This document shows positions 20,816-52,276 of a stretch of DNA of 64,000 nucleotides, one piece after another. Each line of letters begins with the position of its first letter. Positions within the stretch are counted from its first letter, which is position 1. The translations under genes and the position numbers were made by a program. The stretch comes from a virus. Its lineage: Duplodnaviria > Heunggongvirae > Uroviricota > Caudoviricetes. The stretch is from the IMG/VR virus record IMGVR_UViG_3300026549_002476. One strand, given 5' to 3'. The notes beneath the pieces are model-generated. The model had not been told where the DNA came from. It worked only from the letters and a program-made list of their open reading frames with translations, and searched no databases.

Positions 20816-20817
20816 GG

Positions 20818-22545: not shown

Positions 22546-22561
22546 ATTATAGAGGTTGTGT

Positions 22562-25500: not shown

Positions 25501-27274
25501 TGCACATTTAGATGATGCAGATAACTCTTTTGATGCAGGAGTTGTACTTGGAAGACTGGCATCAGTTGGTACAATTGGAAAAAGAGAAGAAGGCGCATCT
25601 TACATTTTAAACTCTGTAGCAGAACATGAGAAGAATATAGTTCCTGAATTGAGAAGATGTTTGAGCTTTTACGGAGATGTAAAGGAACATATATTAAATA
25701 GAGAAGGCAAGAATGAGGCTATAGATAGAATGTACATTTATAGCAAGTCTCTTGTTGACGAAGTAAGCGAGCTTGATATTAAGCACCATATTAGCGATTT
25801 AATATTCCAAGACACTGAAATGCTTAGAGGTTTTTTGAGGGGAATATTTGATGGCGATGGCGGAATCATGGGAAAAACGATCACTTTGACTTTTGGTAAG
25901 CAGAGCGATTTTACAGAGTACATGAGAGATATTCAGAAGGCTCTTGCATTTTTTGGTATTAGAAGCAGAATATATGAATTTAAAGACTGCTATCATGTTA
26001 CAATTAAAGAGAATGATAACAATAGATTTTTGGACCTTATTGGATTTATGAATAAAGACAAGCAGGATAAAAGGGATGACATACAGCCAATTAGAGATGA
26101 GCATATTTTTGGAAGAATCCTTATTCCTGAATCCGTAGAGATCACTGACGAATGGATTGACATGTATGATGTGTGTAATACAACTAATGGTTACTATGTA
26201 GCTGACGGAATTGTAACACATAACACAGCTGCTGATATTTTTAAAATCAGCCTTGCTCGTAATTTTACATTTATTAGAAATCATAATCTTTATGGTAAAT
26301 TGTTAATTATAAATCTTATTCATGATGAGCAACTTATGGAAGTAGATGTGCAGCATTTAAATGCTCAGAGGATACTTGCAGAAGTTGGAAGAAACATGCA
26401 GTTCAGCTTGCCAGAGTTTCCACCTTTGTACATTGGTGCAGGTATTGGTAAAGCTTGGGGCACTGCTAAAGGCAAGATGGCAGAGATTCATCCGCTCTTG
26501 CTTGAGCAGTATACTAAAGAAGCTGAGAATATTCCGATTGAGAGAGCTGAAGCAACTTGGAATGATCCTAATAAAGTAATTGAGTACTTTGATGATAGAA
26601 ACTTAGAATTCAGACGTAAGAAAGTAGCTGATTACATTACAGATCCAAGCCATTGGAATCAGCCATTACACCCTGCAATTGGTGGTCTAATCAATCTTCA
26701 GTTTAATTATGGACGTGGTGGTGATGCTAAGGCTTATGTAGATGAAAATGGAAATCATGTGACAGATGCAGAATTTCTTGAAATGAACTTAGCAGACTTC
26801 ATTAAAGAAAATGGATTAAATGTTGATCCACATACATTCTTTGAGGACAAAGATCAAGTTCAGGCTGAAACACAAGATGAAGAAGAAGACAAAGAATACG
26901 ATGACGATGATGATGAAAATCCAGATGACATTGCAACATCAATTAGTGACGACCCAGATAAGGTATTTTCAGTAGTTGATGAATCTGATAAAACATTTGG
27001 ATCCTCTCTTCAAGACATTATATCTGTGTTTGGATGCTGTTTATTGGAAAATCAAAGAGTGTGTGGTATTGATTTAAGAGGTATGAGTAACAAAGGACGT
27101 AATAGCATGATTGATGCTATTTGTGAGTATGTATGTGAACCAACAGATAGTAAGGGATTACAGCTTGTGTTTCTTAAAGACGGAAACATCCTAGATAAAA
27201 CAGGGGTTTATGTTTCTGGAATCAATGGTTCTACAGCTGAAGCTGAATACAAGAAATTTAAAGCTTTACACTAA
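22562..27274 (+). CDS. polA: DNA polymerase I-like family A polymerase (3'-5' exonuclease plus polymerase), intein-containing, with about 300-aa acidic/Cys-containing C-terminal extension
   Basis: RBS agagg plus ATG at 22562. Exo motif IAYDTETTGL. Pol motifs LDADYSQIEYRVLTAL (A), KSFNFGIPYGMG (B), NAVIQG/TAADIFKISLA (Taq NMPVQGTAADLMKLAM), LIHDEQLMEV (C). Confidence 0.9.
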   Translation: MYSKGKFHSKGKDYDALVNYTKSRTEVLLISKGTIVSAYKTDKTGNYSFASMAAQDLFKVVSKGLGYCNSKNGTPMPFVGLGAVTRHEFSKMKLHYDITEINHELVECDISNNETDDNGSSKMTLNLSHIDKAIIPNNIAYVKLTEVKDVKTVENAEEDLDNIVTRSIEEIALTKEDGGAWLKNKKYYIVNDDATAEQIFEYLDNYDGAIAYDTETTGLKINCFGKVGSHYEKELAEYNASHPDEKIREDRLVGIIFCVEPNVSYYFPVFNRKFKNLYQDLNSPIRKKTVEIIKARYTIGEFRDRDSDMANYIRNTPENEWRLDVILMERVRDILSKKHIVTHGGIFEWRVGWTYEIDTNICDDTMIIHQLIYKFRSTTSNAGEPSNLKYLAKHDLGVDQWELKDFFPNFKADDTGLVKERKDGKGPKKGSRIDFSYMDYAGTQIYAPADGDMTLELYLKYKKDMLEHFKDFEYIYNIEIIVTCAMGYVEFYGHRINESKINGARLQTAAEIVDVEEQIRQAINYASQDEINVHNQLKTAMTEAEKGDVNDPAISGKLDGLAKKLRETIDANTDHALNINSPAQVAALFFDVLGYPDPDGKRSVSKKVYKGLAKEVGDDGKLKYPIAGLYQKYKAKVTLQTKFFDQLQYFQYPEGLIFSDFGQISTATGRMSCKHPNCQQYPKVITKIVEPRPGYIMLDADYSQIEYRVLTALAHNSGLRELFSSPDSDYHTLMASLMYGVPYASVTPQMRSSAKSFNFGIPYGMGFKSLAILLHGNASPESVDDAKVKYEMYFKNQPNTRKFFDNVKEQAQVYGYTKTAFNRRRYYNFTSKDGTVNNAKKAAALRQAGNAVIQGCLSGETRIQTKELGIIKIKDAVNTHLHVWDGNTWAEGDVLYSGKKQKCIVTFSNGQKFICSPIHKFLVKSHKGNTRFVECKDLLTKANSKNPHRIVINPKYEKSDFVYSSNWARRYDEISNNANNAHLDDADNSFDAGVVLGRLASVGTIGKREEGASYILNSVAEHEKNIVPELRRCLSFYGDVKEHILNREGKNEAIDRMYIYSKSLVDEVSELDIKHHISDLIFQDTEMLRGFLRGIFDGDGGIMGKTITLTFGKQSDFTEYMRDIQKALAFFGIRSRIYEFKDCYHVTIKENDNNRFLDLIGFMNKDKQDKRDDIQPIRDEHIFGRILIPESVEITDEWIDMYDVCNTTNGYYVADGIVTHNTAADIFKISLARNFTFIRNHNLYGKLLIINLIHDEQLMEVDVQHLNAQRILAEVGRNMQFSLPEFPPLYIGAGIGKAWGTAKGKMAEIHPLLLEQYTKEAENIPIERAEATWNDPNKVIEYFDDRNLEFRRKKVADYITDPSHWNQPLHPAIGGLINLQFNYGRGGDAKAYVDENGNHVTDAEFLEMNLADFIKENGLNVDPHTFFEDKDQVQAETQDEEEDKEYDDDDDENPDDIATSISDDPDKVFSVVDESDKTFGSSLQDIISVFGCCLLENQRVCGIDLRGMSNKGRNSMIDAICEYVCEPTDSKGLQLVFLKDGNILDKTGVYVSGINGSTAEAEYKKFKALH
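25127..26224 (+). mobile_element. intein (366 aa) with LAGLIDADG homing-endonuclease domain, inserted between Q-G and T-A-A-D of the polymerase
   Basis: In frame with polA. Begins CLSGET and ends VTHN followed by Thr. Internal FLRGIFDGDGGI and DAGVVLGRLASVG LAGLIDADG-type blocks. Extein halves re-join into the conserved PolA motif. Confidence 0.8.
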
Positions 27275-31094: not shown

Positions 31095-31481
31095 ATGCTG
31101 ACGCTGACAATTAAGAAGAAATGGTTTGACATGATTATGTCTGGAGAGAAAAAGGAAGAGTACCGGGAGATTAAGCCGTACTACGATTCCAGATTCCGAC
31201 ATGTTTGGCAGAGGAGCTTTGTAGGAGGCAAGGCACCACGGAAAATCAGGTTTCGCAACGGCTATTCCGCAGACTCACCGTCATTCATTGCGGCCTGCAC
31301 TTTGGATGTCGGGGAAGGGCAACCGGAATGGGGAGCAGAACCAGGTAAGCAGTATTATCGACTGCATATATTATCTGTAAATAATGAGAAAGATCCAAAA
31401 TGGTTTAAATTAGTCAATGAAAGTATAAATGAATATGAAGAAGTAAATCAAGCTGACATAATAGAAAAGTTTGACTTTTAA
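31095..31481 (+). CDS. ASCH-domain-like protein
   Basis: N-terminus MLTLTIKKKWFDMIMSGEKKEEYREIKPYY resembles the ASCH/PUA-like beta-barrel signature. The 5' two-thirds is conspicuously GC-rich. Confidence 0.45.
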   Translation: MLTLTIKKKWFDMIMSGEKKEEYREIKPYYDSRFRHVWQRSFVGGKAPRKIRFRNGYSADSPSFIAACTLDVGEGQPEWGAEPGKQYYRLHILSVNNEKDPKWFKLVNESINEYEEVNQADIIEKFDF

Positions 31482-31562
31482 TAATATATAAATGGCTTAA
31501 TATGTAAAACAAGGTTGTGGATTAAACATAATAAAATTTTTAATATAACAGAGGATTAAAAA

Positions 31563-32444
31563 ATGACTAAGAATTCTAATATTAAAAGTAAGAGAATTAT
31601 TGTTGTAGCTGTCGTAGTTATTATTGTACTTGCCATTATTAAACAGTCCATAGTGGTAATTCCCACAGGGTATACTGGTGTAAAATCTATTTTTGGGCAG
31701 GTAAGTAAGCAGTCTATGCCTAATGGCATTAATTTTAAAATCCCGTTTGTTGAGAAAGTGACAAAGGTCAATACAAAACAGCAGGATGATTATTTTGAAG
31801 GACAGATTTGGTCAGAGACTTCAGATATGACTGAAATTTACTATGATCAGATTACAGTAACATATCAGATTCTTCCTGACAAGGCTTCATGGATTGTGTC
31901 AAATGTGACGAATTACAGGGATGCTCTTGTGAACGCTACATCTGTGAGTTCTGCTGTAAAGGAAGCATCTCGACAGCTTGATTCTAAAAATGCAACGAAT
32001 CGTGGAAAGATTGAACCTTTAGTTCTGCAGTCTTTACAGGATTCTCTTGATAAGAAATATGGTGATCAGGTGGTAACAATTGATCGTGTTGTAATTGGGG
32101 ATGCTAACTTCGAGGAAAGTTATAACGAAGCTATTGCATCCAGACAGAAAGCCCAGATTGAAGCTGAGCAGCAGGCGATTGAGAACCAGAAAGCGATTGA
32201 CAAGGCGACTGCTGATGCAAAAGTTAAGACAACACAAGCTCAGGCTGATGCAGATGCAGCAGTGATTGAGGCTCAGGGCCAGGCTGATGCAAATAAACTG
32301 TTGAATGATTCAATTACTGATAAAACTTTAAAGCAGCAGTATCTTGATAAGTGGAACGGAGAACTTCCAAAGGTAACTTCTGGTTCTGATGTGATTGTTG
32401 GAATGGATGACCTTGGCAGTTCAGATAGTTCCGGAGCAGACTAA
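31563..32444 (+). CDS. SPFH/band-7 (prohibitin/stomatin/HflKC-like) membrane protein
   Basis: N-terminal TM helix IIVVAVVVIIVLAII, then GYTGVKSIFGQV…FKIPFVEKVTKVNTKQQ… SPFH-like core and an Ala/Gln-rich coiled-coil C-terminus. Confidence 0.65.
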   Translation: MTKNSNIKSKRIIVVAVVVIIVLAIIKQSIVVIPTGYTGVKSIFGQVSKQSMPNGINFKIPFVEKVTKVNTKQQDDYFEGQIWSETSDMTEIYYDQITVTYQILPDKASWIVSNVTNYRDALVNATSVSSAVKEASRQLDSKNATNRGKIEPLVLQSLQDSLDKKYGDQVVTIDRVVIGDANFEESYNEAIASRQKAQIEAEQQAIENQKAIDKATADAKVKTTQAQADADAAVIEAQGQADANKLLNDSITDKTLKQQYLDKWNGELPKVTSGSDVIVGMDDLGSSDSSGAD

Positions 32445-33361: not shown

Positions 33362-33434
33362 AACATATAAGCCCGATGGTGGTGAATCTAGGGTGATCCT
33401 TAAATTATTTATATACTTAGGAGGAAATTTTATT

Positions 33435-35945
33435 ATGCCACAGGTAGTAAAAAGAGACAATCGAGTAGTTCAATTTGATGCGTCTAAAATTGAAAATGCA
33501 GTTTTGAAAGCATTCATTGACGTAGACAAGGAGGTGACGCCATTTGCAAGAGATAAGGCCCACAATATTGCAGTATATATTGAGGGTCAGGCTCAAGACA
33601 AAACACTGACAATTGAACAGATTCAGGATTACGTAGAGAATGGTTTAATGGCTACTAAGAGAAAAGATGTAGCCAGAGCTTACATGAGTTACCGAATGAA
33701 TAGAACGATAGCTCGTGAAAGAAAATCTTCTTTACACAAAGCCATTGAAGAGAAAATCTTGGCCAGTGATGTTAAGAATCAGAACGCCAATGTTGATGAA
33801 CACAGTTTTGGTGGTCGTAAAGGAGAAGCAGATAGTGTTTATATGAAGCAGTATGCTTTAAACTATCTTATCTCTGATAAGGCAAGATTCAATCATGAGA
33901 ATAACAGAATTTACATTCATGATCTTGATAGCTACGCAGTTGGTTCTCACAATTGCCTTACAGTACCATTTGATCACCTTCTGTCACATGGGTTCACAAC
34001 TCGCCAGACTGACGTTAGACCAGCAAGAAGTATCAGTACAGCAATGCAGTTGGTAGCAGTTATTTTCCAGCTACAGTCACTTGACCAGTTCGGTGGTGTA
34101 AGTGCAAGTCATATTGACACTTCGATGGTGCCATATGTAAGAATGAGCTTTAAGAAGCATTACATTACTTCTTATGTACTTGACTCAGATGATTTTGATA
34201 AGCTCAATGTTGATACAATGACTGAAGAAGAGCTTGATGACTTCATTGATGAGCGTAAAGATGAGTACATGAAGAAGTTAAACCTTACTGATTCAGATTT
34301 TACATTTGACAGTACAAAACTTGATGAACATCTCAAGAAGAAGGCAATACTTCTCACACGCAGGGAAGTTTATCAGGCAGTCGAAGCAACATTCCATAAC
34401 CTAAATACCTTGCAGAGCAGAAGTGGCAACCAGCTCCCCTTTACAAGCATTAATTTTGGATTGGATACTTCCCAAGAGGGTCGTTTAGTAACTCGTGCAC
34501 TTCTTGAGAAATCTATTGAGGGCGTTGGAAGTGTTCATAGAACATCAGTATTTCCTTGTTCCATTTTTCAAGTTAAGTCTGGCATTAACAAGTATCCGGA
34601 TGATCCGAACTACGACTTGTTTATGCTAGCTTTAAAGAGTACATCATTACGACTTTACCCAAATTATGCAAATGCAAATGTTAAGATGCAGCAGAATTGG
34701 GTTAAGATGGACAGGGAAGTTAAGCACAGAGTGATTAATGAGATGTCCGATGAAGATAAAAAGACATTAGCAATTAGATTAAAAGAGAATCCGAGTTTAC
34801 AGGAATCACTTCTTCTCGACTTACATGATGATGGTACATTCACAGTTCATGAAGAAGAAGTACCTATTGAAGTGTTCTCAACCATGGGATGCAGGACTCA
34901 GAACGGCTTTGATTGTTGGGCTGAACATTCATTTAGAGAGAATGTGGCTCATGTAATTAAAGACGGAACATTGTATGATAATTATGTATCTGGAGCACAG
35001 AAAGATGGACGTGGAAACATTTGTCCAGCTACAATAATTCTTCCTACACTTGCTATGGAGGCAAGAGAGAAGGCAGGAGATGGAGCAACTGAAGATGAAC
35101 TTGTAGAAACTTTTATGAATATACTTTCAGTTGCACTTGATGACACTAGGGATGAATTGATGGAGCGTTTCGAGCATATTTGTTCACAGTCAGCTAAGTC
35201 AGCTCCGTTTATGTATCCTAATAACACAATGTATGGATATGTACCTGCTGAAGGAATTCGTTCAGCATTACGCCATGGGACATTAGCCGTAGGTCAGTTG
35301 GGTATAGCAGAAACACTTCAGCTTCTGATTGGTTGTGATCAGACTAATCCAAAGGGTTTGGCATTAGCTGAAAGAATTGAACAGCTTTATGAAAAGAAAT
35401 GTAACGAGTTTAAAAAGAAGTATCATTTGAATTTTGGAGTATACTTCACCCCAGCAGAGAACCTGTGTTATACTGCAATGCTTAAGTTCCAGAGTAAGTA
35501 TGGCAAGATTAAGGGTGTATCAGACAAGGATTTCTTCACAAACAGCATGCATGTGCCAGTTTGGGATAAGATTGATCCATTTAAGAAAATTGACATTGAA
35601 TCTAAATTAACTAAGTATAGTACAGCTGGATGCATTACTTACATTGAACTTGACAATAATTGTCGTAACAACTTAAAAGTGTTGGAGCAGATGGTAGTTT
35701 ATGCCATGGATCATGATGTTCCATACTTTGCAATTAATGTGCCGAATGACACATGTTTGGATTGCGGTTATACTGGTGAGTTTAATGATCATTGTCCAGT
35801 GTGTGGAAGTAAACATATTCAACAGTTACGACGTGTAACTGGCTATCTTACTGGCAATTACACAACAGCATTTAATAAAGGTAAGCAAGAAGAAGTTAGG
35901 ATGCGCTATAAGCATTCAAATAGCTTAAGTAACTGGAATAAATAA
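33435..35945 (+). CDS. nrdD: anaerobic ribonucleoside-triphosphate reductase (class III RNR)
   Basis: RBS ggagga plus ATG at 33435. N-terminal ATP-cone (VVKRDNRVVQFDASKIENAV). C-terminal Zn ribbon CLDCGYTGEF…CPVCGS and glycine-radical motif RRVTGYL. Confidence 0.85.
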   Translation: MPQVVKRDNRVVQFDASKIENAVLKAFIDVDKEVTPFARDKAHNIAVYIEGQAQDKTLTIEQIQDYVENGLMATKRKDVARAYMSYRMNRTIARERKSSLHKAIEEKILASDVKNQNANVDEHSFGGRKGEADSVYMKQYALNYLISDKARFNHENNRIYIHDLDSYAVGSHNCLTVPFDHLLSHGFTTRQTDVRPARSISTAMQLVAVIFQLQSLDQFGGVSASHIDTSMVPYVRMSFKKHYITSYVLDSDDFDKLNVDTMTEEELDDFIDERKDEYMKKLNLTDSDFTFDSTKLDEHLKKKAILLTRREVYQAVEATFHNLNTLQSRSGNQLPFTSINFGLDTSQEGRLVTRALLEKSIEGVGSVHRTSVFPCSIFQVKSGINKYPDDPNYDLFMLALKSTSLRLYPNYANANVKMQQNWVKMDREVKHRVINEMSDEDKKTLAIRLKENPSLQESLLLDLHDDGTFTVHEEEVPIEVFSTMGCRTQNGFDCWAEHSFRENVAHVIKDGTLYDNYVSGAQKDGRGNICPATIILPTLAMEAREKAGDGATEDELVETFMNILSVALDDTRDELMERFEHICSQSAKSAPFMYPNNTMYGYVPAEGIRSALRHGTLAVGQLGIAETLQLLIGCDQTNPKGLALAERIEQLYEKKCNEFKKKYHLNFGVYFTPAENLCYTAMLKFQSKYGKIKGVSDKDFFTNSMHVPVWDKIDPFKKIDIESKLTKYSTAGCITYIELDNNCRNNLKVLEQMVVYAMDHDVPYFAINVPNDTCLDCGYTGEFNDHCPVCGSKHIQQLRRVTGYLTGNYTTAFNKGKQEEVRMRYKHSNSLSNWNK

Positions 35946-35967: not shown

Positions 35968-36006
35968 ATACCTACTGCCATCTATTATAGGCAGTAGGTA
36001 TTTTTA
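35968..36006 (+). terminator. rho-independent terminator after nrdD
   Basis: atacctactgcc…ggcagtaggtat 12-bp stem plus ttttt. Confidence 0.75.
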
Positions 36007-36063
36007 TGATTTGACTTATATGTAATGGGGATGTATTTTTAATTAGATTTTGGAGATTTTATT

Positions 36064-36618
36064 ATGAATATTCATTACGCTGGCCTTATGTACAATGATG
36101 TATTAGATTCAGTTGAAGGAATAGCAGTATCATTTTGGACTCAAGGCTGTCCATATCATTGTGAGGGATGTCATAATCCACAGACATGGGATCCAAATGG
36201 GGGCTTACAGATAGATCTTGAATTACTTAAACAAGGGATTTTGCAGGGTTTGATAGCTGATGGGGTTGAAAGAAACTTTTCAATTCTTGGTGGTGAACCA
36301 TTGTATGATGGAAATATTCAGATTACAGAAAGTTTACTCACATCAGTAAAACTAGTTTATCCATGGGTTAAAACTACAGTTTGGACAGGAAATACCTATG
36401 AAAAAATAGTGACTGATAAAAGATTTGAAAAGGTACTTAATAACTTAGATTATATGATAGATGGGCCTTTTATTCTAAGCAAGAGAGATATTACATTACC
36501 ATTAAGGGGTTCAAGTAATCAGAGAATAATAGATGTTAAGCAGTCATTAAAAGATGGGGAAGTTAAAGAAATTGATATAGAAAGTATGAAAGATCCACAG
36601 ATGAGGTATAAAGCATGA
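36064..36618 (+). CDS. nrdG: anaerobic RNR activating protein (radical-SAM)
   Basis: N-terminus YAGLMYNDVLDSVEGIAVSFWTQGCPYHCEGCHN, the typical NrdG start with its Cys cluster. Immediately downstream of nrdD. Confidence 0.8.
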   Translation: MNIHYAGLMYNDVLDSVEGIAVSFWTQGCPYHCEGCHNPQTWDPNGGLQIDLELLKQGILQGLIADGVERNFSILGGEPLYDGNIQITESLLTSVKLVYPWVKTTVWTGNTYEKIVTDKRFEKVLNNLDYMIDGPFILSKRDITLPLRGSSNQRIIDVKQSLKDGEVKEIDIESMKDPQMRYKA

Positions 36619-37004
36619 AGATTATAGATTTTAAGAAAAAGGGAAACGTAGTTAGGTTTTATCTTGGCAATGATAATTTAAAAGACTGGTATGGTGACGA
36701 TTGGAATGACGTCTCATATGAGCACAATGCCGGAGATGTTTATAGCGAGTTTATCAAAGGAACTAAGGACATAGTATTTCCGTTTGATGATCTCGTATTA
36801 GAGCCAAGTGACACTTATGAGGCTGAGAGCGGATACTGTAAGAACGATATGGTTGACAGAAGAATTCCATGTATTATTGTAGTGCCTGGTAAATTAGCTA
36901 CAAATTCATATCATGAAGACTTTGGATATTGGGTTGGATCTGATAAGATTAAGAAGTTTTACTTTGGTGATAAAATGGAACCAGATGAAAATTATAACAA
37001 ATAG
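36615..37004 (+). CDS. hypothetical protein
   Basis: ORF overlapping the nrdG stop (ATGA). Confidence 0.4.
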   Translation: MKIIDFKKKGNVVRFYLGNDNLKDWYGDDWNDVSYEHNAGDVYSEFIKGTKDIVFPFDDLVLEPSDTYEAESGYCKNDMVDRRIPCIIVVPGKLATNSYHEDFGYWVGSDKIKKFYFGDKMEPDENYNK

Positions 37005-37129
37005 TGATGGGAACTCGATCAGCTGGATAGGGCAGAGGAAGACAGCGGAGAACCCGAGTGGGACGTTAGATCACACAAGCCGATGATGTGCGGCAGAGAG
37101 CCAGTCCCGAATATTGAGAGGGTGGACGG

Positions 37130-37285
37130 ATGAAAGAGACAACGCTTTATGTTTGCGAAATCTGCGGCACAAGGTACACCAGCATAACAGAAGCACCTTC
37201 AGAACCTACGGCGGACATGGGCGAAGGTTTTATGCGCATTCCAGACGGGGTAGACGATGAAGGACTCCCATTCAATTGTGGTTAA
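37130..37285 (+). CDS. small zinc-ribbon protein (51 aa, CEICGTRY…)
   Basis: RBS gagagggtggacgg plus ATG at 37130. Below the ORF-track size cutoff. Overlaps the annotated start of the next ORF. Confidence 0.3.
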   Translation: MKETTLYVCEICGTRYTSITEAPSEPTADMGEGFMRIPDGVDDEGLPFNCG

Positions 37286-37682
37286 TGAGGTAACGGAATG
37301 GAGCAAGCAAATGAACATTGAAAATATAGCAATCAAAGATATAAAACTATATGAGCGGAATGCGAAGAAATATGATGAGCGACAAATAAAAAATGTAATG
37401 CAATCAATTAAAAATTATCGCATAGTTCAGCCATTGGTTGTTGATAAAGATAATGTTCTAATAATTGGACATTGTAGACTTATTGCATGTAAACGTTTAG
37501 GCATAACCGAAGTGCATGTTGTGAGAAAAGACGATTTGACACAAGAGGATGTGGACAAATTACGGCTTTTAGACAACAAGTTAAACGAAAGCGAATGGGA
37601 TTTTGATTTACTTTGCGAAGCAGAACAGTGGAAAAGGAAGATCAAAAATGAACACGGAAACGTTAGTAAATCAGATATTTGA
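37257..37682 (+). CDS. ParB-like nuclease domain (ParBc) protein; likely true start 37311
   Basis: IAIKDIKLYERNAKKYDERQIKNVMQSIKNYRIVQPLVVDKDNVLIIGHCRLIACKRLGITEV matches the ParB N-terminal/ParBc core. Confidence 0.5.
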   Translation: MKDSHSIVVNEVTEWSKQMNIENIAIKDIKLYERNAKKYDERQIKNVMQSIKNYRIVQPLVVDKDNVLIIGHCRLIACKRLGITEVHVVRKDDLTQEDVDKLRLLDNKLNESEWDFDLLCEAEQWKRKIKNEHGNVSKSDI

Positions 37683-37905
37683 AAAAGAGCCGAATGCCGT
37701 TACACCGAATGATATTATGCGGTTTCCTTCCGCACAGCCAGAACGTCAGAAGGGTGAGTGGATAGAAATACCCTCAATAAGTCACACTTATAAATGCTCA
37801 GAGTGTGGAAGGCTTCTTGTCAATATCACGGATGGTAAAAACAATGTTGCAAGGAATTATCCGTATTGTCACTGTGGAGCAGATATGAGAGGTGAACAGG
37901 AATGA
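37648..37905 (+). CDS. small zinc-ribbon protein (CSECG…YCHCGADM)
   Basis: RBS ggaaaaggaag plus ATG at 37648. CxxC…CxC, tail similar to other Zn-ribbon proteins in the window. Confidence 0.4.
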   Translation: MNTETLVNQIFEKEPNAVTPNDIMRFPSAQPERQKGEWIEIPSISHTYKCSECGRLLVNITDGKNNVARNYPYCHCGADMRGEQE

Positions 37906-38150
37906 TTGATGCAGGTACGATCTTGGAAGTTACAAGAAATCTGATAGGTGCAACCGAGCCATACGGCGATTCTGCCATTGACAGAGAGCGTACGCAGAAT
38001 CTTGACAAGCTGATTTACATCGTTGATGAATTGCTATATGACGTTGAGAAGGTGGCGGTTAATAAAGCATTGGAAGCAATAGAGGCGTTGCCATCCGCAC
38101 AGCAGTGGATACCGTGCAGTGAAGTGACCGGAGAAAGGAAAGAAGAATGA
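37902..38150 (+). CDS. hypothetical small protein
   Basis: ATGA overlap with the upstream stop. Confidence 0.35.
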   Translation: MIDAGTILEVTRNLIGATEPYGDSAIDRERTQNLDKLIYIVDELLYDVEKVAVNKALEAIEALPSAQQWIPCSEVTGERKEE

Positions 38151-38302
38151 ACATCAGAGCATGCAAGGGATGTATTTATTTCACAAAATATTACGGAAAC
38201 AAGAACAAGAAGGGCGAACAAACCGTAAGCAACTATTGGTGCGTAGCAAAGCAAACAATGCTTAAGAGGTTTCCAAAAGAATGCGAAAGGAAAGAAGAAT
38301 GA
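38147..38302 (+). CDS. small Cys-containing protein (51 aa)
   Basis: ATGA overlap with the upstream stop (translational coupling). CKGC…C…C residues. Confidence 0.25.
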   Translation: MNIRACKGCIYFTKYYGNKNKKGEQTVSNYWCVAKQTMLKRFPKECERKEE

Positions 38303-38332
38303 CAAAACGTTTCAAAAGATGTCTGGTGGCAG

Positions 38333-38530
38333 ATGATTCAGCTTCTTCCAGAATCTTATAATCAGCGAAGAACTATCACGATGAACTACGAGAATGTCTT
38401 TACGATCATTAAGCAGAGAAGTGGACACAAGTTGGATGAGTGGGTTGAGTTCATTAAAATTCTTAAAACACTGCTGTATGTAATGGAGATTGGAGGTATG
38501 AATGACAAAGGAGGAAATGGCAATGAGTGA
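38333..38530 (+). CDS. hypothetical small protein
   Basis: ORF track only. Confidence 0.25.
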   Translation: MIQLLPESYNQRRTITMNYENVFTIIKQRSGHKLDEWVEFIKILKTLLYVMEIGGMNDKGGNGNE

Positions 38531-38843
38531 GTATAAGTTAATTGCTGAAGAGGGATATAATGATGGATATTACTGGGATCAGAGGTACTGCTTTGAACTA
38601 GATGGTAAGCGATACATTTTGGTAGATGTTGGAAGCTTGTCTGGATATATCTCAAACCATGGAGAAATCATGGAAGTGGAAAACGATGAAAGTCTAGATA
38701 TTTTGCTTAAAGATTGGGATATTGATAAAATGGATAAACCACATGATCTTGCTGAGGAAGACGCAATTCAATATGTAAAGCAATTAAAGGAGTCGGGGAT
38801 ACAGGCAGGTGAATCGTTTGAACTGTGGAGCTATGATTGGTAA
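38502..38843 (+). CDS. hypothetical protein
   Basis: ORF with RBS-like ggagg upstream. Confidence 0.35.
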   Translation: MTKEEMAMSEYKLIAEEGYNDGYYWDQRYCFELDGKRYILVDVGSLSGYISNHGEIMEVENDESLDILLKDWDIDKMDKPHDLAEEDAIQYVKQLKESGIQAGESFELWSYDW

Positions 38844-38988
38844 GTTGAGCAGTTTCGACCAAAATAAGATAGATGCTTTTTACAAGGGTTCAGTACCTAT
38901 TGCCTGGATGCCATTACCAAAGTCATACAATGCAGAAACGAGGTAGAGAAGAAATTCATTATACTAAGCAATTATAGGAGAAATAACT

Positions 38989-39495
38989 ATGAAGACATTC
39001 ACTGAGGCTGAAAAAACTATTGCCAGAAATATTGATTGGGAGTATAAATGGATGGCTAGAGACTGGGATGGAAATTTGTGTATTTATGAAGAAAAGCCTA
39101 AGAAAAGAAATGACAGATGGATCTCTGATGATTATGATTACATTTTCTATTTCAACTATTTGTTTTCAGCTATCAAATGGGAGGACGATGAGCCTACTTT
39201 AATTCGTGATATCTACAATCCGCCGGTTCTTAACGACGCGGAGCGGGAATATCTCAAAACGGTTCTGAAACCATTTCATGAGAATGTGGCTTATGTTGAA
39301 AAAGTACATTATTATCCTATAAACGGAGATACTTCTTCTAGTCTGGCATTCTTATTCATAAAACTTCATGACGGAAAGCTAGAATTTCCTAATTTTGATT
39401 TGAGAAAAATGTACTTGGGAATGGAGTTAAACAAAAAGTATAAGATGGGCGAACTTGGAATTACATACGAGGAGGATAATCATGACGATCAATGA
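38989..39495 (+). CDS. hypothetical protein
   Basis: RBS aggag plus ATG. Confidence 0.4.
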   Translation: MKTFTEAEKTIARNIDWEYKWMARDWDGNLCIYEEKPKKRNDRWISDDYDYIFYFNYLFSAIKWEDDEPTLIRDIYNPPVLNDAEREYLKTVLKPFHENVAYVEKVHYYPINGDTSSSLAFLFIKLHDGKLEFPNFDLRKMYLGMELNKKYKMGELGITYEEDNHDDQ

Positions 39496-39737
39496 AAAGC
39501 AGGAACTTGTAAAGCCAGTAGTACACGCGCTGGGTGCCATGTGAAGACGAATACGAAGATGAATATAAATGTTCTGTATGCGGCGGAACCCATTTTTCGC
39601 TATGACACCGCAAGATGAAGGATGGGAATATTGCCCACATTGCGGCGCAAAGATGGACGAGAAGACGGACGATTAAACTAACGAGCTTGTAAGTCAAAAA
39701 AATCCACGATTATTGAACTAAGAGAGGAGCGAGAAAA

Positions 39738-40319
39738 ATGAAAATCGAGAGAATGACAGAAATTGAGACATCCGTTATCGAAGTTGGCGACCGGATCCAC
39801 GTCGATCACTACACGGCGACATGTCAGGAACTCACGCCGAAGGGCGCGCTATTCTTCCTCGATCAGTACCTCGACAAGGCATATCCGATGAATCTGAATA
39901 ACACCAACAAGGGCGGCTACCCGGAGAGCGATCTGCGGAAAGCTCTGCAAAGCGACGAGGTGCTTAATATCTTTGCGGACATCCGCGACTACATGGTTCC
40001 GTTCGATAACGGCGATCTGCTCCGGATCCCGTTCGCCGGAGAGATGTTCGGCGACGAGGTGCCGCAATGGATCGAGTCTGACAGCAATGAACAGTGGCCG
40101 CTCATGAAAGACGCGCACAACCGCATAGCGTCAAGGTGCGGAGATCCCGAATGGGGATGGCTCGCGAACACATCCCGCGATACCTCGCCGGCTTTCTGCT
40201 CTGTCACCGCCTACGGCGCTGCGAACGGCTGGCTCGCCTCGTACGTCTTCGGGGTCCGGCCGGTTTTCCTGATCGCGCGCGAGACTATAGCAGATGAGGG
40301 AAAAGATGAGACTGGTTGA
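39738..40319 (+). CDS. DUF6273-like domain protein encoded in a GC-rich segment well above the surrounding AT-rich DNA
   Basis: Strong RBS gagaggag. WGWLANTSRD…GWLASYVFGVRPVF resembles the W-L-R-S…G-V-R-P-A signature of DUF6273. Confidence 0.4.
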   Translation: MKIERMTEIETSVIEVGDRIHVDHYTATCQELTPKGALFFLDQYLDKAYPMNLNNTNKGGYPESDLRKALQSDEVLNIFADIRDYMVPFDNGDLLRIPFAGEMFGDEVPQWIESDSNEQWPLMKDAHNRIASRCGDPEWGWLANTSRDTSPAFCSVTAYGAANGWLASYVFGVRPVFLIARETIADEGKDETG

Positions 40320-40358
40320 TGCAGATGCGTTAGCGGTGAGGGAAATGCGGAGTTTAGG

Positions 40359-40649
40359 ATGATGTTACATAAGTGGAATTATAAAACCAATGAGTATGAT
40401 CCCTACGAAGTCCCGGACGGCTGGGATGTATCGACTTTCGAGACTGATATGGGATCTATAGTCAACTGTGCGGAATGTGGGAAATCAATCACGTTCGGGC
40501 AAGGATACACCAGCAGGAAGATCCACACGCTTTTCGGCATGGGATATGTCGTTTGCAAAGACTGTTACGACAAAGAAATATTAAGGTGTTTTGCACTATC
40601 GCGGCAGCAACATTTATCACGATTATCGCGAGTAGGATTGCGCTCATAA
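40359..40649 (+). CDS. small zinc-ribbon protein (CAECG…CKDC)
   Basis: ORF with two CxxC pairs. Confidence 0.35.
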   Translation: MMLHKWNYKTNEYDPYEVPDGWDVSTFETDMGSIVNCAECGKSITFGQGYTSRKIHTLFGMGYVVCKDCYDKEILRCFALSRQQHLSRLSRVGLRS

Positions 40650-40699
40650 CAGCGCTTCTGAAAGTGAGAAAATTTCAGGAGGAAAGCAGGGAGTAAGTA

Positions 40700-41077
40700 A
40701 TGAAAGTGCATGAATTAGCATCACAGCTTAGCGAGTATATTGAGTCTAGACACGCAGAGGATACTGTTGTAATCGCTCTGCAGGAAAGAAGCTTCGGCCC
40801 GGAAGCGGCAGAAGAGGTGAAATATTGCTGTGCGGGATTTGATTGGGACAATGGAAGGATCTTCCTTGTTCCGAAAGAACCTCTTGTGCATTACAGAAAC
40901 GAAAGGGACAAAGCACAGTCCGCAATCCGGATAAGTTACAAAAATAACTATGGCGGAAAGATCAGACCAACACTTCATTGTCCGCGATGCGAAGCAAAGC
41001 TGAGCAAGGAAATGAGATATTGCCCTAAATGTGGGCAGCGCGTTGACACAGAAAATGTACGTGACGTCATGATTTAA
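40700..41077 (+). CDS. zinc-ribbon protein with C-terminal CPRC…YCPKCGQRV tail
   Basis: Strong RBS caggaggaaagcaggg. The C-terminal 22 codons are duplicated at 41432-41497. Confidence 0.45.
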   Translation: MKVHELASQLSEYIESRHAEDTVVIALQERSFGPEAAEEVKYCCAGFDWDNGRIFLVPKEPLVHYRNERDKAQSAIRISYKNNYGGKIRPTLHCPRCEAKLSKEMRYCPKCGQRVDTENVRDVMI

Positions 41078-41097
41078 AAGGAGAAAAAGGAGAAAAA

Positions 41098-41466
41098 ATG
41101 AGTAAAGAAATGTTGGTAACGGTTAATGGTGGCCGGTTATATTTCAAGGTGAATGCAAAAACGGCAAGTGCCGGGTTTGACCATCTTATGGAGGCGCTCA
41201 ATGACGCCGGCATTGACGTGTCGAACGTTGAGTTTGGAAGCTGCGAGCTTCGAGATGAGAACGGAGGCACAATAGATGAATTTCAGATCAATCCGGCACG
41301 CAATCGCCATTATGACTGTAATCATGATTGTGATGCAGTCTATCAGGCTTATCAGAAAGGTAAGCACGACGAGCGCAATCGCATCCTGAAAGCAATTTTA
41401 TGCTCGAAAAACGGGCAGAGAGGGAATAAAAATGAGGTATTGCCCGAAATGTGGGGAGAGCGTTGA
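41098..41466 (+). CDS. hypothetical protein; its 3' end runs out of frame into a duplicated zinc-ribbon tail (possible frameshifted gene)
   Basis: RBS aaaggagaaaaaggag. Ends NEVLPEMWGER* while the +1 frame reads MRYCPKCGESVDTENVHDVLI. Confidence 0.35.
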   Translation: MSKEMLVTVNGGRLYFKVNAKTASAGFDHLMEALNDAGIDVSNVEFGSCELRDENGGTIDEFQINPARNRHYDCNHDCDAVYQAYQKGKHDERNRILKAILCSKNGQRGNKNEVLPEMWGER

Positions 41467-41584
41467 CACAGAAAATGTACATGATGTCTTGATTTAAGAG
41501 CACTTTTTCTAGAAAGGAAAAATATTATGAGATGTATGACTGTGATGTTTACTTATATGCATTAGCAAATATGTATTGATAGCC

Positions 41585-41846
41585 TATAAATAATAGGGGT
41601 ATGATTTTTAATTAAGAATTTAAAAAGTTGTTATTTATAAGGTCAACATTAATTAAAAACAAACTTATAAAAAATTGAAGAATGACTTATAAATAATAAG
41701 GGTATGATTTTTAATTAAGAATTTGAAAAATTGTTATTTTATAAGACCGACATCAATTAAAAATAAACTTATAAAAAATTGAAGAATGACTTATAAATAA
41801 TAAAGGTATGATTTTTAATTAAGAATTTGAAAAATTGTTATTTTGG
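41585..41846. repeat. tandem direct repeat, about 2.5 copies of a 103-104-bp AT-rich unit
   Basis: Units begin tataaataatagggg… at 41585, 41688 and 41792. Near-identical copies. Confidence 0.85.
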
Positions 41847-41911
41847 TTAAAACATTCCGGCCGGATGTTTAACAATATAAATGTGTTAAACCTACTAAGA
41901 TTAGAAACGTA

Positions 41912-42059
41912 GAGAATAAAGGATTAAAGGATTAAAAGGTTAAAAGGATTAAAAGGTAAAAGGATCATTTATTTTCAAAGGTTTAAAGCATTTAAAGGTA
42001 AAAGAAACTAAAGGTAAAAAGGTAAAAAAGGTTAAAAGCATTTTGGAGGTTTAAGAATT
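41912..42059 (+). promoter_or_regulatory. A/G-rich microrepeat leader (AAAGGWTWAA-like elements) ending in the RBS ggaggt of the gp32-like gene; candidate unstructured translational operator or UP-like element
   Basis: taaaggattaaaggattaaaaggttaaaaggattaaaaggtaaaagg … aaaggtaaaaaggtaaaaaaggttaaaag. Purine-only, low-structure sequence. Confidence 0.4.
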
Positions 42060-43247
42060 ATGGCACTTAAGAGTTTTATCTCTACGGCTAAGCGTGTAAC
42101 TGATGTGAGGACTTTCCTCAAGGATTCTGCTAAGGGAAACAGTATCAAGTATACTTCTGAGCAGAACAAGAGAGATGTTCTGTATGTACCCATGATCAAG
42201 CAGCAGGTTACCGATGAGAATGGAAATACTGTTGAGGTCAATTCCATTATTTCTATTGAAGCTGACATTCATGAGTGGCGTGACAGTAGCAACAATTCTT
42301 TCCATGGTTGTGTCTGTATGAAGAATGTTGTACGCACTGATGATGATGGAAATACCATCAATGACGGTACTTGCCCGTTCTGTGACAGAGTTAATGATAG
42401 CTGGGCTATCTACAACTACAGAAAGAACATTGAGGAAGCTAACTGCAAGCTGACTGGTGATGATCGTGACAAGTTCCTCAAGGAGAAGGGATCATCATTC
42501 CGTGACGAGATGAAGATTAAGGCAGCAAAGCCTTACATGTATATCCTCGTTGCAAAGTTTAGAACTGAGGGGAATCAGTTTGTACTTGATGATTCTGGTA
42601 TGCCTGAATATGATCTCAAGGTTTGGAAGGTTTCTGCAAGCCGTGCACAGGCTCTGTATGATATTCCTCACAATACTGGCCTTGAACTTCCGGGATGTAC
42701 TCTTGTTATCAAGTATCCGGATGAAGCAAACGTAATGCAGAGAGCTGGTCATGCAACAATTACTGCTACTAACCAGCCGACTATTGCTCCGACTGCTAAG
42801 TATCCGGCACTTGCTGATAAGATCAATGCAGAAGCAGCAAAGTTCGATTGGGAAGGCATTTCTAAGGCATTCCCTGAGTTTGAAGGTATGTCTACTGCAC
42901 AGGCTAAGAAGATTATGGATAACAGCTTTGAGCAGTGGGATTCTTACCAGAAGGAACTTGAGGTTAACAAGGATGCTAAGTACCTTGAGTATGTAGTTGA
43001 GCCTGTTAAGACTGCTCCGTCAACTGTTACTCCTGCTCTTGGAGCTGTTCCTGTTCCTAACATTCCGAATGTTGGTCAGGCAGCTAATGTTCAGATGCCA
43101 GGTCAGGGCGTCCAGCCGACAGTACAGCAGGCAGTACCTCAGCAGGCAGCACCTCAGCAGGCAGCACCTCAGCAGGCAGCACCTCAGCAGGCAGCACCTC
43201 AGCAGAGCAATCCGTTTGCAAATATGGCACCAACTCTTAATCTGTAA
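42060..43247 (+). CDS. putative T4 gp32-like ssDNA-binding protein with C-terminal (P-Q-Q-A-A)n repeats
   Basis: Strong RBS ggaggtttaag. Zn-site-like H…C-x-C…C-P-F-C as in gp32 (His64/Cys77/Cys87/Cys90). YMYILVAKF… and LKVWKVSASRAQALYD resemble the gp32 core (YWANILVVKDP, VFKYRFGKKIWDKI). GC-rich codon usage and a strong terminator suggest high expression. Confidence 0.45.
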   Translation: MALKSFISTAKRVTDVRTFLKDSAKGNSIKYTSEQNKRDVLYVPMIKQQVTDENGNTVEVNSIISIEADIHEWRDSSNNSFHGCVCMKNVVRTDDDGNTINDGTCPFCDRVNDSWAIYNYRKNIEEANCKLTGDDRDKFLKEKGSSFRDEMKIKAAKPYMYILVAKFRTEGNQFVLDDSGMPEYDLKVWKVSASRAQALYDIPHNTGLELPGCTLVIKYPDEANVMQRAGHATITATNQPTIAPTAKYPALADKINAEAAKFDWEGISKAFPEFEGMSTAQAKKIMDNSFEQWDSYQKELEVNKDAKYLEYVVEPVKTAPSTVTPALGAVPVPNIPNVGQAANVQMPGQGVQPTVQQAVPQQAAPQQAAPQQAAPQQAAPQQSNPFANMAPTLNL

Positions 43248-50761: not shown

Positions 50762-52276
50762 ATGAATCAACAACAAGCTTATTGCATAATAATAGTCAGC
50801 ATTAAGAAAAATTATGTGACTGGTAAAATAATTTCTTACGATATTATAACAAATAGAGGGGAAGTGCTGTTTGACCTTAGAGAAGAAGAATTACTTGTAA
50901 AAGTATGGTCTCTTAGGGGAAGTAATGTTGTAACAGTCAATTTTGAAGTAAATAAAAATAAAATTGTTATGTTAAACATGCTTCCTGGTAAGAAAGCTAG
51001 GTATTATGCTAAAAAGACAGTATCAAAATCTGAAAGAAGATATTTTTACATTGTTGTAACTGGATATGACATGAATAATGGAACTTTTGACTATGTTGCA
51101 GAAAAGCCAGATAGAAAGGTTATTCGTGGAAACAGTGCAATTATAGAAGAACTTGTTGGATTGCCAATAAGCAGCAATGATGATTCTGCTGACTTGAGAT
51201 TTTATAATGCATATATAGATAACACAATAAGTAGTAGAAAAACAATGTTTAGACTTGTAGTATATAATAAAAATACTGATGGATATACAGTTCTTCCAGT
51301 TGCTAGAATAAGCAAAAAAGATTTTAACTTAAAGATTAATAGTGATTTTTCAGCACATGGGTTTAAACAAGAAAATGCTGGAATAACTATTAGAAAGATA
51401 ACTCAAGATATAGTAAGAAGAGATAGTACACTCGAAATTCCAGATGGTGTAACTCAATTAGGTAGACTTGAATCATATGGGCCTGTTATAGTATCTTGTC
51501 CAGACTCATTAGTTAACCTTGGAAATGGTTGTTTTGCTAAATATGTAAATCATAGGAACGGTGAATCTTTTAATAAAGCAAATATACTAAATGAGCAAGA
51601 CTATACAGAGTGCCAGTTATCAGAGATATACTTAGGTTCTGGCATTCGAATTATTCCAAAAGATTGTTTTGCATATTCACCAGTTAAGTTTGTGCAGTTA
51701 TCCGGTAGGGAAGTATATATAGCAAATGGGGCTTTTAAATACACAGAGAATCTTAGCGGAACAGTAAGTACAACTGCTAGAAAAATAGGAGTATCTGCTT
51801 TTGAAGGTTCTGGAATAAATACGTTTACTGGGGATAAGCTAGAGTACATTGGTATGAAAGCCTTTAGTAAATGTCCAAACTTATACAGAGTAAAGATCAA
51901 AGGCGAGTTACTGATTATTGGAATGAATATCTTTGATGGAGATGCTAACCTAAGATATGTGTCATTACCAGATAGTGTTGAAGAAATAGGGGCTGAAGCA
52001 TTTCGTGGTTGTAAGCAATTAACAATGATGTTCATGCCAAGAAACATTAGGAAGGTTGGAATAAATGCTTTTAAAGGTTCTGGATTAGCTCAAGCTATAT
52101 TTGGAAATAGCCTTGAAAAAATAGATGAATCAGCATTTGATGATTGTAAGGAAATTCAAAGAATTGAAATACCAAGCACTGCTAAAATAATTCATCGAAT
52201 GAATGATAAAAAGGAACATTTATTAACATCAGAGAAACTCCAGAAAAGATATAATGTTAGAGTATATAAAGTTTAA
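50762..52276 (+). CDS. protein with C-terminal BspA-type leucine-rich repeats
   Basis: Repeats …GNGCFAKY / IPKDCFAYSPV / IANGAFKYTENL / IGVSAFEGSGI / IGMKAFSKCPNL / IGMNIFDGDANL / IGAEAFRGCKQL / VGINAFKGSGL / IDESAFDDCKEI. Confidence 0.55.
   Translation: MNQQQAYCIIIVSIKKNYVTGKIISYDIITNRGEVLFDLREEELLVKVWSLRGSNVVTVNFEVNKNKIVMLNMLPGKKARYYAKKTVSKSERRYFYIVVTGYDMNNGTFDYVAEKPDRKVIRGNSAIIEELVGLPISSNDDSADLRFYNAYIDNTISSRKTMFRLVVYNKNTDGYTVLPVARISKKDFNLKINSDFSAHGFKQENAGITIRKITQDIVRRDSTLEIPDGVTQLGRLESYGPVIVSCPDSLVNLGNGCFAKYVNHRNGESFNKANILNEQDYTECQLSEIYLGSGIRIIPKDCFAYSPVKFVQLSGREVYIANGAFKYTENLSGTVSTTARKIGVSAFEGSGINTFTGDKLEYIGMKAFSKCPNLYRVKIKGELLIIGMNIFDGDANLRYVSLPDSVEEIGAEAFRGCKQLTMMFMPRNIRKVGINAFKGSGLAQAIFGNSLEKIDESAFDDCKEIQRIEIPSTAKIIHRMNDKKEHLLTSEKLQKRYNVRVYKV

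Follow-up and report, generated by a model that had tools for sequence, protein, structure and literature searches.

The DNA analysed here (the window) is a stretch of 64,000 nucleotides (nt) from a phage of the class Caudoviricetes (IMG/VR record IMGVR_UViG_3300026549_002476). We deal with its GC-rich region at positions 37005-41500 and, in particular, with the small DUF6273-like gene at 39738-40319. All the genes of the window are on the + strand. To the left of the region we found, in this order, a family-A DNA polymerase with an intein, a Toprim primase-like gene, Band_7, NrdD, NrdG and a gene coding for 129 aa. To the right, an AT-rich spacer is followed by a 395-aa single-stranded DNA-binding protein (SSB)-like gene, RNase H, and SbcC-like and SbcD-like genes. 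The region sits within the replication and nucleotide-metabolism module of the phage, and its features are collected in Table 1.

The GC content of 37005-41500 is 0.434 versus 0.328 for the rest of the window (33.6% for the window as a whole), and when all possible 4496-bp windows in the 64 kb are compared the richest one begins at 37006. The original prediction, made from the letters and their open reading frames (ORFs) without database searches, had placed a switch in composition after the gene ending at 37004 and a return to AT-rich DNA at about 41500. Both edges were recovered by calculation, since GC rises abruptly at 37005-37007 and falls to 22% over the non-coding spacer at 41501-42059. 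Taking as reference the 119 windows of 500 bp outside the region (mean GC 0.328, standard deviation 0.041), the 500-bp windows inside reach z = 2.2-5.5, with the exception of 38001-39500 (z = 0.7-1.9). The GC at third codon positions (GC3) averages 0.445 in the 12 ORFs of the region (range 0.324-0.706), versus 0.263 +/- 0.060 in 50 ORFs outside. The deviation, seen in GC and GC3 alike, is strongest at silent sites, for which reason amino-acid composition fails as an explanation. The peak corresponds to ORF 39738-40319 (56.5% GC, GC3 0.706), which had been judged by eye to be well over 50% GC, and the spurious ORFs on both strands that had also been remarked upon are indeed present inside this gene. 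Taken as a whole, the stretch is compositionally heterogeneous, a mosaic rather than a uniform island.

A way to establish how this mosaic was put together is to compare it with its closest relatives. Through protein-cluster look-ups we have found ten sibling loci from ten samples (L020-L029; the prefix L designates the loci and contigs used for comparison) that align with the window at 95-99% up to 37006 and resume at 40696. In place of the intervening DNA they carry only the 10-nt GAGAACAGCA, which is the ribosome-binding spacer of the next gene. Since in the siblings the gene ending at 37004 is followed directly by the gene at 40700, the segment 37007-40699 is strain-specific. The final ~15 nt of the left flanking gene are unlike those of the siblings (129 versus 126 codons), which places the left junction between ~36990 and 37007. 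The event was most probably an insertion rather than a deletion, because the extra DNA is compositionally foreign, starts inside a gene and is very similar to the DNA of unrelated phages. No target-site duplication or terminal inverted repeat was detected in the junction sequences and no integrase, transposase or other mobility gene among the insert ORFs in the Pfam and PHROG scans; a transposon or integrative element was ruled out, given that there are neither repeats, duplication nor recombinase. Hence, among the features that characterize genomic islands, we found the deviation at silent sites and, for 37007-40699 only, the absence from relatives, but not the mobility features. The suggestion that this was recently acquired foreign DNA is upheld by the comparison with relatives for 37007-40699, whereas 40700-41500 is resident in the species. 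The GC-rich "island" is a real deviation but consists of two layers, the insertion and, beside it, the resident genes at 40700-41466.

A similar picture could be produced by an assembly chimera in which reads of higher-GC phages had been joined into an AT-rich contig, and it is true that segments of the insert are 90-96% identical to phages likely to occur in the same type of sample and that one Logan contig ends 64 nt into the insert. However, that same contig crosses the left junction at 100% identity, and an independent 116-kb ENA assembly (ERZ27252065 k141_923847) is 100% identical across the insertion and both junctions, its sole difference from the window being a 30-nt indel in the PQQAA repeat of the SSB-like gene. 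In addition, a JGI 400-kb contig encodes the insert proteins exactly, and the strain-specific 3' end of the flanking gene (129 instead of 126 aa) goes with the insert. With independent assemblies sharing the junctions, we reject the chimera, whose probability we consider close to nil.

The resident layer appears to have its own history of exchange. The segment 41084-41475 matches at 96% the L008 contig (305 kb, 46% GC), and the 122-aa gene, being as close to the L008 copy as to those of the siblings, seems to be a promiscuous cassette itself. To judge from these comparisons, the resident genes at 40700-41466 have also been exchanged with other phages. The second copy of the 71-nt repeat that brackets the 122-aa gene is out of frame with it, and both copies are present in the siblings too; in L008 a similar MRYCPKCG mini-ORF comes after the 122-aa gene. 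The locus seems to be variable across the family as well, since distant relatives (46-52% identity in the SSB-like protein) either have the Toprim gene next to the SSB-like gene, on its upstream side, or carry quite different cargo there. Among deposited phages no close relative was found: a megablast of 36000-42500 against the INPHARED phages gave no match, and neither tblastn of the SSB-like flank against phages nor its IMG/VR scan gave anything useful.

The insertion itself is made of pieces that are 83-96% identical at the nt level to at least three unrelated phage lineages, spanning 38-59% GC. An outer module of ~53% GC (37007-37194 plus 39737-40579) is interrupted by an inner block of 39% GC (37195-39736). 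The outer module contains, in this order, a gene fragment, a small CxxC gene, the DUF6273 gene and a zinc-finger gene, the first three of which are found close together in other phages. Within it, L008 matches 37055-37143 at 83%, L004-L008 and L013-L015 match 39779-40268 at 90-92.5%, and the temperate phages L016-L019 match 39789-40579 at 90%, a segment that comprises the DUF6273 gene plus the initial 74 codons of the zinc-finger gene. In L004-L007 and L044 the small CxxC gene, whose start is kept here as 37130-37195, immediately precedes the DUF6273 gene, and the homology of 37130-37285 to L004 and L044 stops at 37194-37195, where the inner block begins. Inside the latter, 38523-38844 and 38954-39476 are 91-93% identical to L030-L035, elements of 38-39% GC that keep the same order. 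The 168-aa ORF of this block also has 36% aa identity to a gene of L016-L019 that precedes the DUF6273 gene by two positions. Certain coding motifs recur at the seams (MRLIDADAL starts, PSAQP and PVVHAHW linkers, MRYCPKCG ribbons, the exact 18-nt repeat and the 71-nt repeat) and might plausibly have served as micro-homologies for recombination.

Another conspicuous property of the insert is that at least five of its ORFs are fragments, truncated or frameshifted. The original prediction had counted at least twelve small genes; twelve ORFs of the region entered the GC3 comparison. The best example is the ORF that had been described as a ParB nuclease-domain protein. The domain itself holds (ParB_N, 28.8 bits versus a Pfam cut-off of 26.3, residues 20-107), but the architecture is incomplete. 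Its 43 IMG/VR relatives (up to 83% aa identity) match only approximately residues 1-103, and in most of the 24 that were inspected the ORF extends to 310-470 aa and includes the methyltransferase motif HRLICGDSTD. The ParB homology ends after SEWDFDLL and the ORF of the window stops 22 codons later. It resembles the ParB-DNA methyltransferase fusions of Firmicutes phages in the ParB_N domain and in a GxxRxxA-type motif (GHCRLIA) and differs from them in having no methyltransferase domain. It is the truncated N-terminal stump of such a fusion, and little of the architecture relevant to activity is expected in it. Similarly, of the six or more CxxC zinc-ribbon proteins that had been proposed, five are intact (37130-37285, with one CxxC, 37648-37905, 38147-38302, 40359-40649 and 40700-41077), while 39482-39675 is a frameshifted remnant, as seen in the alignment to its intact 107-aa counterpart (L030:8495-8818), and 41432-41497 is a half-ribbon stub. 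The 82-aa ORF at 37902-38150 seems to be an N-terminal module from a LIDADAL-type modular phage protein. When the concatenated ORFs were searched by tblastn the result was dominated by ParB matches, and without ParB only eight weak matches were left, from Dorea, Solobacterium and human faecal phages.

These observations bear on the proposal that the whole of 37005-41500 is a single functional cassette, devoted to anti-defence or host takeover and acquired in one event from one higher-GC donor. Small genes in the early region of phage genomes often have roles of this kind, and the abrupt rise in GC at the left edge, the tight packing of the ORFs on one strand and the full-length appearance of the 113-aa, 168-aa and DUF6273 ORFs (most likely the working parts of the insert) would fit it well. 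However, the right-hand part is present in all sibling strains, the GC3 of the ORFs spreads from 0.32 to 0.71, the pieces match different phage lineages and several ORFs are broken. Nor did the annotation favour a role in anti-defence or takeover: PADLOC, used with no dedicated anti-defence library at its side, recognized only positions 7-113 of MTase_II, that is, its ParB part, and the PHROG scan of the remaining insert ORFs gave families of unknown function only. In a consensus scan, promoter-like sites (10 versus 15.2 +/- 4.6 expected) and terminator-like sites (4 versus 3.4 +/- 2.0) were not enriched and none bracket the insert, which is not what the moron module of the original prediction would lead one to expect; having no promoter or terminator signals of its own, the insert probably depends on read-through from the early genes upstream. 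We therefore regard the single cassette as improbable.

The most GC-rich gene of the insert deserves separate treatment. The 193-aa DUF6273-like protein has 946 homologues, mostly of 180-195 aa, which indicates that it is full length; truncation, as might be deduced from its partial PHROG match, is a wrong diagnosis for this gene given the size of the homologues. Copies of the gene that are 90-92.5% identical in nt are found in at least four other phage backgrounds. In every backbone examined, from 33 to 59% GC, it has 53-59% GC (GC3 0.65-0.78), equalling the backbone only in phage loci of 57-59% GC and standing out at 38-47% and here at 33%. The simplest reading of such identity across unrelated backbones is a recent horizontal spread from a high-GC lineage. 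A high GC that is intrinsic to the gene, a selected property carrying no foreign mark, would also explain its constancy in so many backbones, and for a gene diversified by a diversity-generating retroelement (DGR) there is a possible reason, namely that DGR function requires the variable region and the 3' element to remain matched to a template that is GC-rich. Against this, the excess is greatest at the third positions over the whole gene (GC3 0.71), well beyond the variable region, gene and backbone agree only in the phages of 57-59% GC, and the nt identity of 90-92% in unrelated backbones speaks for recent transfer rather than convergence, so that we consider an intrinsic origin very improbable. 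The likely donor class of the GC peak comprises DGR-bearing temperate phages of 54-59% GC and prophage-like loci of Lachnospiraceae and related Clostridia. In this sense the higher-GC source that had been predicted appears correct for the most GC-rich gene, but other pieces come from elements of 38-39% GC; likewise, of the two groups suggested as source, Clostridia (Lachnospiraceae) phages were found whereas Actinobacteria gave none. The small target of the high-GC phage L046 lies between a DNA polymerase and a VapE-like primase-helicase, which is also a replication module.

DUF6273 has been described as a C-type-lectin-like domain and a frequent DGR target in gut phages (PMC10743442; PMC11792537; bioRxiv 10.1101/2024.10.15.618418). 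In the alignment the framework of the homologues is well conserved, and hypervariability affects the x positions of a C-terminal block, FCxVxxxGxAxxWxASxV.GVRP. The 113 homologues compared have 101 distinct variable-region strings, with 11-15 residue types per variable position, nearly all of them encodable by NNY codons; K, E, Q, M and W are almost absent. At the DNA level the variation is restricted to codon positions 1 and 2 while the third base is fixed. This pattern, together with the set of residues, is the signature of adenine-directed mutagenesis by a DGR. A scan of IMG/VR by the invariant bases of the region yielded eleven loci, four of them with a predicted template in a non-coding context (...AAT TTC TGC AAT GTC AAC AAC AAC GGC AAT GCG AAC AAC TGG AAC GCC TCG AAC...). 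Templates in which each variable codon reads AAY were found in four IMG/VR contigs, two genomes and two metagenome contigs; the two genomes, Bilifractor porci and an uncultured Lachnospiraceae bacterium, carry the exact template at loci of 54-55% GC. In L043 a 323-aa DUF6273 target is followed downstream by the template, which has an Avd-sized ORF on one side and an RVT_1 ORF on the other; this is the canonical arrangement of a cassette. Compared with this template repeat, the window segment 40185-40255 (71 nt, in which the template has 22 A) has 17 mismatches, every one of them at an adenine of the template (P about 2e-9). When the GGGGTC-type template of L039/L041 is taken instead, the match extends to ~40272 and adds one further adenine mismatch. 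The 3' end GGGGTCCGGCCGG is conserved among the window, the other variable regions and the templates. Hence, two marks of a DGR target were found, an adenine-only relation to a template and family hypervariability derived from AAY codons, and from these we identify 39738-40319 as a small DUF6273-type DGR target gene. In L004-L007 (~110-kb phages), which otherwise have the same allele as the window, a TAG replaces the codon of a conserved Trp in the variable region (at ~10440-10460), and this copy could be either a pseudogene or a product of adenine mutagenesis. Two or three head-to-tail small DUF6273 paralogues with different variable regions are found in L008 (10001-11683) and L013 (21-1155), with no reverse transcriptase within 10 kb on these contigs.

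Small targets of this type have been reported in Faecalibacterium prophages Lelie and CP11 and in phages nd4 and nd12 (target2), as DUF6273-related single domains with the variable region at the C-terminal end (PMC11792537; PMC10743442). The gene in the window is likewise a single domain, and one DGR-bearing lineage has a large and a small target with a common template framework. The resemblance is drawn from the published descriptions, and there are differences: the gene is found here in a 33% GC phage and the DGR-bearing phages have ~57%, its C-terminal tail is different, and a hairpin (GGGCGGG-N5-CCCGCCC) that follows the high-GC variable regions is missing, with no stable fold downstream in the window (z = 0.63). 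Work on the Toutatisvirus diversity hotspot reports phages that have no DGR and yet keep DUF6273 targets in or near hyper-variable hotspots (bioRxiv 10.1101/2024.10.15.618418). Unlike those, the target in the window was apparently imported alone, as a minigene, into an unrelated backbone, and it is located in the replication module, away from structural or Hoc-like genes.

Whether the gene can still be diversified depends on the presence of a template and a reverse transcriptase. Allowing up to three mismatches, no template repeat was found in the 64-kb window, where the variable region is the sole match to the framework, and the possibility of a template inside the window was thereby rejected. 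No RVT_1 domain was found among the large ORFs of the window that were scanned, and there is no retroelement in the insert. Furthermore, the core allele of the variable region, SVTAYGAANGWLAS, is identical in the window, L004-L007, L008 and L013, while the rest of the proteins differ by 13-18%, the opposite of what active mutagenesis would produce. The missing hairpin after the variable region points in this direction too. The gene is thus probably an orphan, a frozen DGR target, in a phage that we infer to have no DGR in the unread half of its genome either. An active target, served by a DGR elsewhere in the genome or in trans from a co-resident prophage, would account for the intact variable region and its 3' end, GC-rich and resembling an initiation of mutagenic homing (IMH) sequence, and for the confinement of all the differences from the template to adenines; targets many kb away from their template have been described (bioRxiv 10.1101/2024.10.15.618418). 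Yet the siblings do not have the DUF6273 gene, so that its cognate DGR would need a second, independent acquisition, and, in addition to the missing template and RVT_1 and to the core shared by four phage backgrounds, the two readable assemblies of the strain are identical at the variable region. Moreover, the exact 48-nt template occurs in only two metagenome contigs, neither being the 400-kb contig that carries this phage. Altogether, we think it unlikely that the target is active. A bolder and about equally doubtful idea is that the small DUF6273 gene is a self-contained "hypervariable binding cassette" that moves horizontally among unrelated phages of 33-59% GC and that could be re-diversified in trans each time its carrier enters a cell with a prophage bearing the cognate DGR, given that the variable region and the priming element are kept. 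The gene is in the replication module in both lineages with neighbours that could be read (the window and L046). If the idea were true, the mutagenesis machinery of one phage would be borrowed by another, AT-rich and itself devoid of a DGR.

The reading that we favour, and hold to be probable, combines a mosaic insertion at a hot spot with a frozen, orphan DGR target. The replication module of this ~33% GC gut phage contains a hot spot for accessory genes, built in two layers. The first is that of the resident genes, carried by all strains and exchanged with other phages, and the second the 3.69-kb piece, which would have come in between two closely spaced genes through illegitimate or micro-homology recombination. 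Within the latter, the inner block may have brought genes and stumps from 38-39% GC elements into the outer module. In the donor phages the reverse transcriptase would copy the template, with errors at adenines, into the C-terminal variable region, which would belong to the ligand-binding part of the published C-type-lectin-like fold. In the recipient, the DUF6273 gene most likely persists as a frozen allele, transcribed together with the early genes around it, and its product would be a putative ligand-binding domain fixed in one specificity.

Several results weigh against this reading. The RVT_1 match in L043 has 27.3 bits, below the cut-off of 29.6. The DUF6273 assignment, made already in the original prediction, is backed by close homologues, many of which carry precomputed PF19789 hits, and by the match to phrog_21980 (E = 4e-32), but the protein of the window itself scores 17.9 bits in Pfam, under the cut-off of 23.5. 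Its fold is taken from the literature (PMC10743442; bioRxiv 10.1101/2024.10.15.618418) and gains no confirmation from a low-confidence AlphaFold2 model built on a 35-sequence alignment (mean predicted local distance difference test score, pLDDT, 56, and <50 at residues 99-172). A Foldseek search of this poor model against the PDB gave no match with E < 3 (the top one was a Thomasclavelia IgA peptidase at E = 3.3, and the DUF6273 literature retrieved included a paper on IgA peptidases of gut bacteria, from which no conclusion is drawn), and a profile search of the PDB sequences with the DUF6273-like protein found nothing. The 64 kb read belong to a genome of at least 116 kb and a DGR could lie in the rest, while the scan of the metagenome for templates presumes that the 400-kb contig is in the collection and is blind to variant templates. 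Copies with the same hairpin-less tail as that in the window carry many different variable regions, a fact that would also suit an active target and that makes the loss of the hairpin no proof of inactivity. Finally, among the strains compared there is none with an intermediate form of the insert, and the mosaic may have been assembled inside this phage or have come ready-made from an unsampled donor.

Strain-specific and mosaic DNA is well known from the lambdoid morons and the plastic regions of T4-like phages. The locus resembles these morons and diversity hotspots in having strain-specific DNA between conserved genes, a deviant GC, small genes of unknown function and mosaic relations. It departs from morons in that no promoter or terminator of its own was detected in the insert, in its many ORF fragments and in being nested rather than a single gene. 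Thus both parts of the favoured reading, mosaic accessory DNA at a phage hot spot and a DGR target that is separated from its retroelement, have precedents. The present case resolves, to the base, the entry of accessory DNA into a phage, with both junctions set by ten sibling strains. It also illustrates that a compositional "island" can be a layered scrap-heap, which calls for caution before such regions are labelled as anti-defence cassettes. The small DUF6273 target stands alone in at least six phage backgrounds, often with no detectable DGR nearby, and this bears on the role of small non-structural DGR targets and on whether targets outlive their retroelement or move independently of it.

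Table 1. Features of the GC-rich region and its immediate surroundings (positions in the window)
Feature	Position	Strand	Details
Left flanking core gene	36615-37004	+	129 aa, 126 aa in siblings; 98% nt identity to the ten sibling loci up to 37006
Strain-specific insertion	37007-40699		3,693 bp, 43.1% GC; absent from sibling loci L020-L029
3' fragment of a 141-aa-type gene	37008-37130	+	41 codons without a start; matches the 3' end of L008 gene 7221-7646 at 62% (aa) and 83% (nt)
Chimeric 51-aa ORF, one CxxC	37130-37285	+	First 22 aa match the gene directly upstream of the DUF6273 gene in other phages; rest matches the C-terminus of phrog_18107
ParB_N-only ORF	37257-37682	+	141 aa (123 aa from ATG at 37311); N-terminal stump of a ParB-N6/N4 DNA methyltransferase fusion
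85-aa zinc-ribbon ORF	37648-37905	+	Two CxxC/CxC pairs, PSAQPE linker; 41% aa identity to a gene in L004-L007
82-aa ORF	37902-38150	+	MIDAG... start, LPSAQQWIPCSE end; phrog_26501, E = 1.5e-6
51-aa Cys-rich ORF	38147-38302	+	Exact 18-nt direct repeat at both ends (38133-38150 and 38285-38302)
C-terminal quarter of a ~218-aa family	38303-38530	+	phrog_6721 positions 162-216; 52-60% aa identity to human faecal phage contigs
113-aa ORF	38502-38843	+	Unknown function; apparently full length; 92-93% nt identity to L030-L035; 90%-identity cluster of 15 members, 97-113 aa
168-aa ORF	38989-39495	+	Unknown function; apparently full length; 91.5% nt identity to L030-L035, there too after the 113-aa gene
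Decayed zinc-ribbon gene	39482-39675	+	Three reading frames; C-terminal ~65 codons of a ~107-aa MRLIDA...PVVHAHW...Zn-ribbon gene
DUF6273-like gene	39738-40319	+	193 aa; GC peak
DGR variable region	40185-40272	+	IMH-like GC-rich 3' end GGGGTCCGGCCGG
18-codon stub	40306-40362	+	MRLVDADALAVREMRSLG; remnant start of a LIDADAL-type gene
96-aa zinc-finger ORF	40359-40649	+	First 74 aa 94.6% identical to the 87-aa gene after the DUF6273 gene in L016-L019; tail replaced after 40579
Resident 125-aa zinc-ribbon gene	40700-41077	+	In all siblings; 91-93% nt identity versus 98-99% for core genes
Resident 122-aa gene	41098-41466	+	95.7-96.7% identity to sibling copies, 96.4% to the copy in the unrelated contig of L008
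71-nt direct repeat, 89% identical	41010-41080 and 41430-41500	+	Carries the zinc-ribbon gene end MRYCPKCG...I*; brackets the 122-aa gene
AT-rich non-coding spacer	41501-42059		22% GC; three tandem ~104-bp repeats (41562-41843); conserved in siblings

Differences among the strains are also found elsewhere in the window. The family-A DNA polymerase (22556-27274, ~1570 aa) has an insert of the LAGLIDADG_3 type, and in the siblings (L022, L023 1-792; 1619 aa) the insert is of the Intein_splicing plus HNH_3 type, so that different strains appear to hold different selfish elements in the same gene. The nrdD gene (33393-35945) is intact in the window and split in the siblings L020 (3614-7174) and L021 (2519-6079) into ORFs of 492 and 333 aa with one of 123 or 141 aa between them, which suggests an intron or homing element. 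A second strain polymorphism is located at 31388-31643, where the alignments to L020, L022, L024 and L027 break; a 128-aa gene at 31095-31481, with the highest GC3 outside the island (0.43), is called in L023 and absent from the L020, L022 and L024 calls.

The SSB-like protein (42060-43247) has a C-terminal PQQAA repeat with a copy number that varies among strains (380-405 aa). It has 188 homologues, many on contigs of more than 100 kb, and no Pfam or PHROG family matched it. Farther away, a D12 adenine methyltransferase (65-1096), two adjacent weak Mom-family ORFs (19370-22545) and a BspA-type leucine-rich-repeat protein (50762-52276) suggest that DNA modification and host- or environment-binding functions are encoded elsewhere in the phage. 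As for the spacer at 41501-42059, which immediately precedes the SSB-like gene, it contains a run of short AAAGG(A/T)T repeats at 41903-42042 and is the place where several short-read contigs end; it may serve as a replication origin or as an array of promoters.

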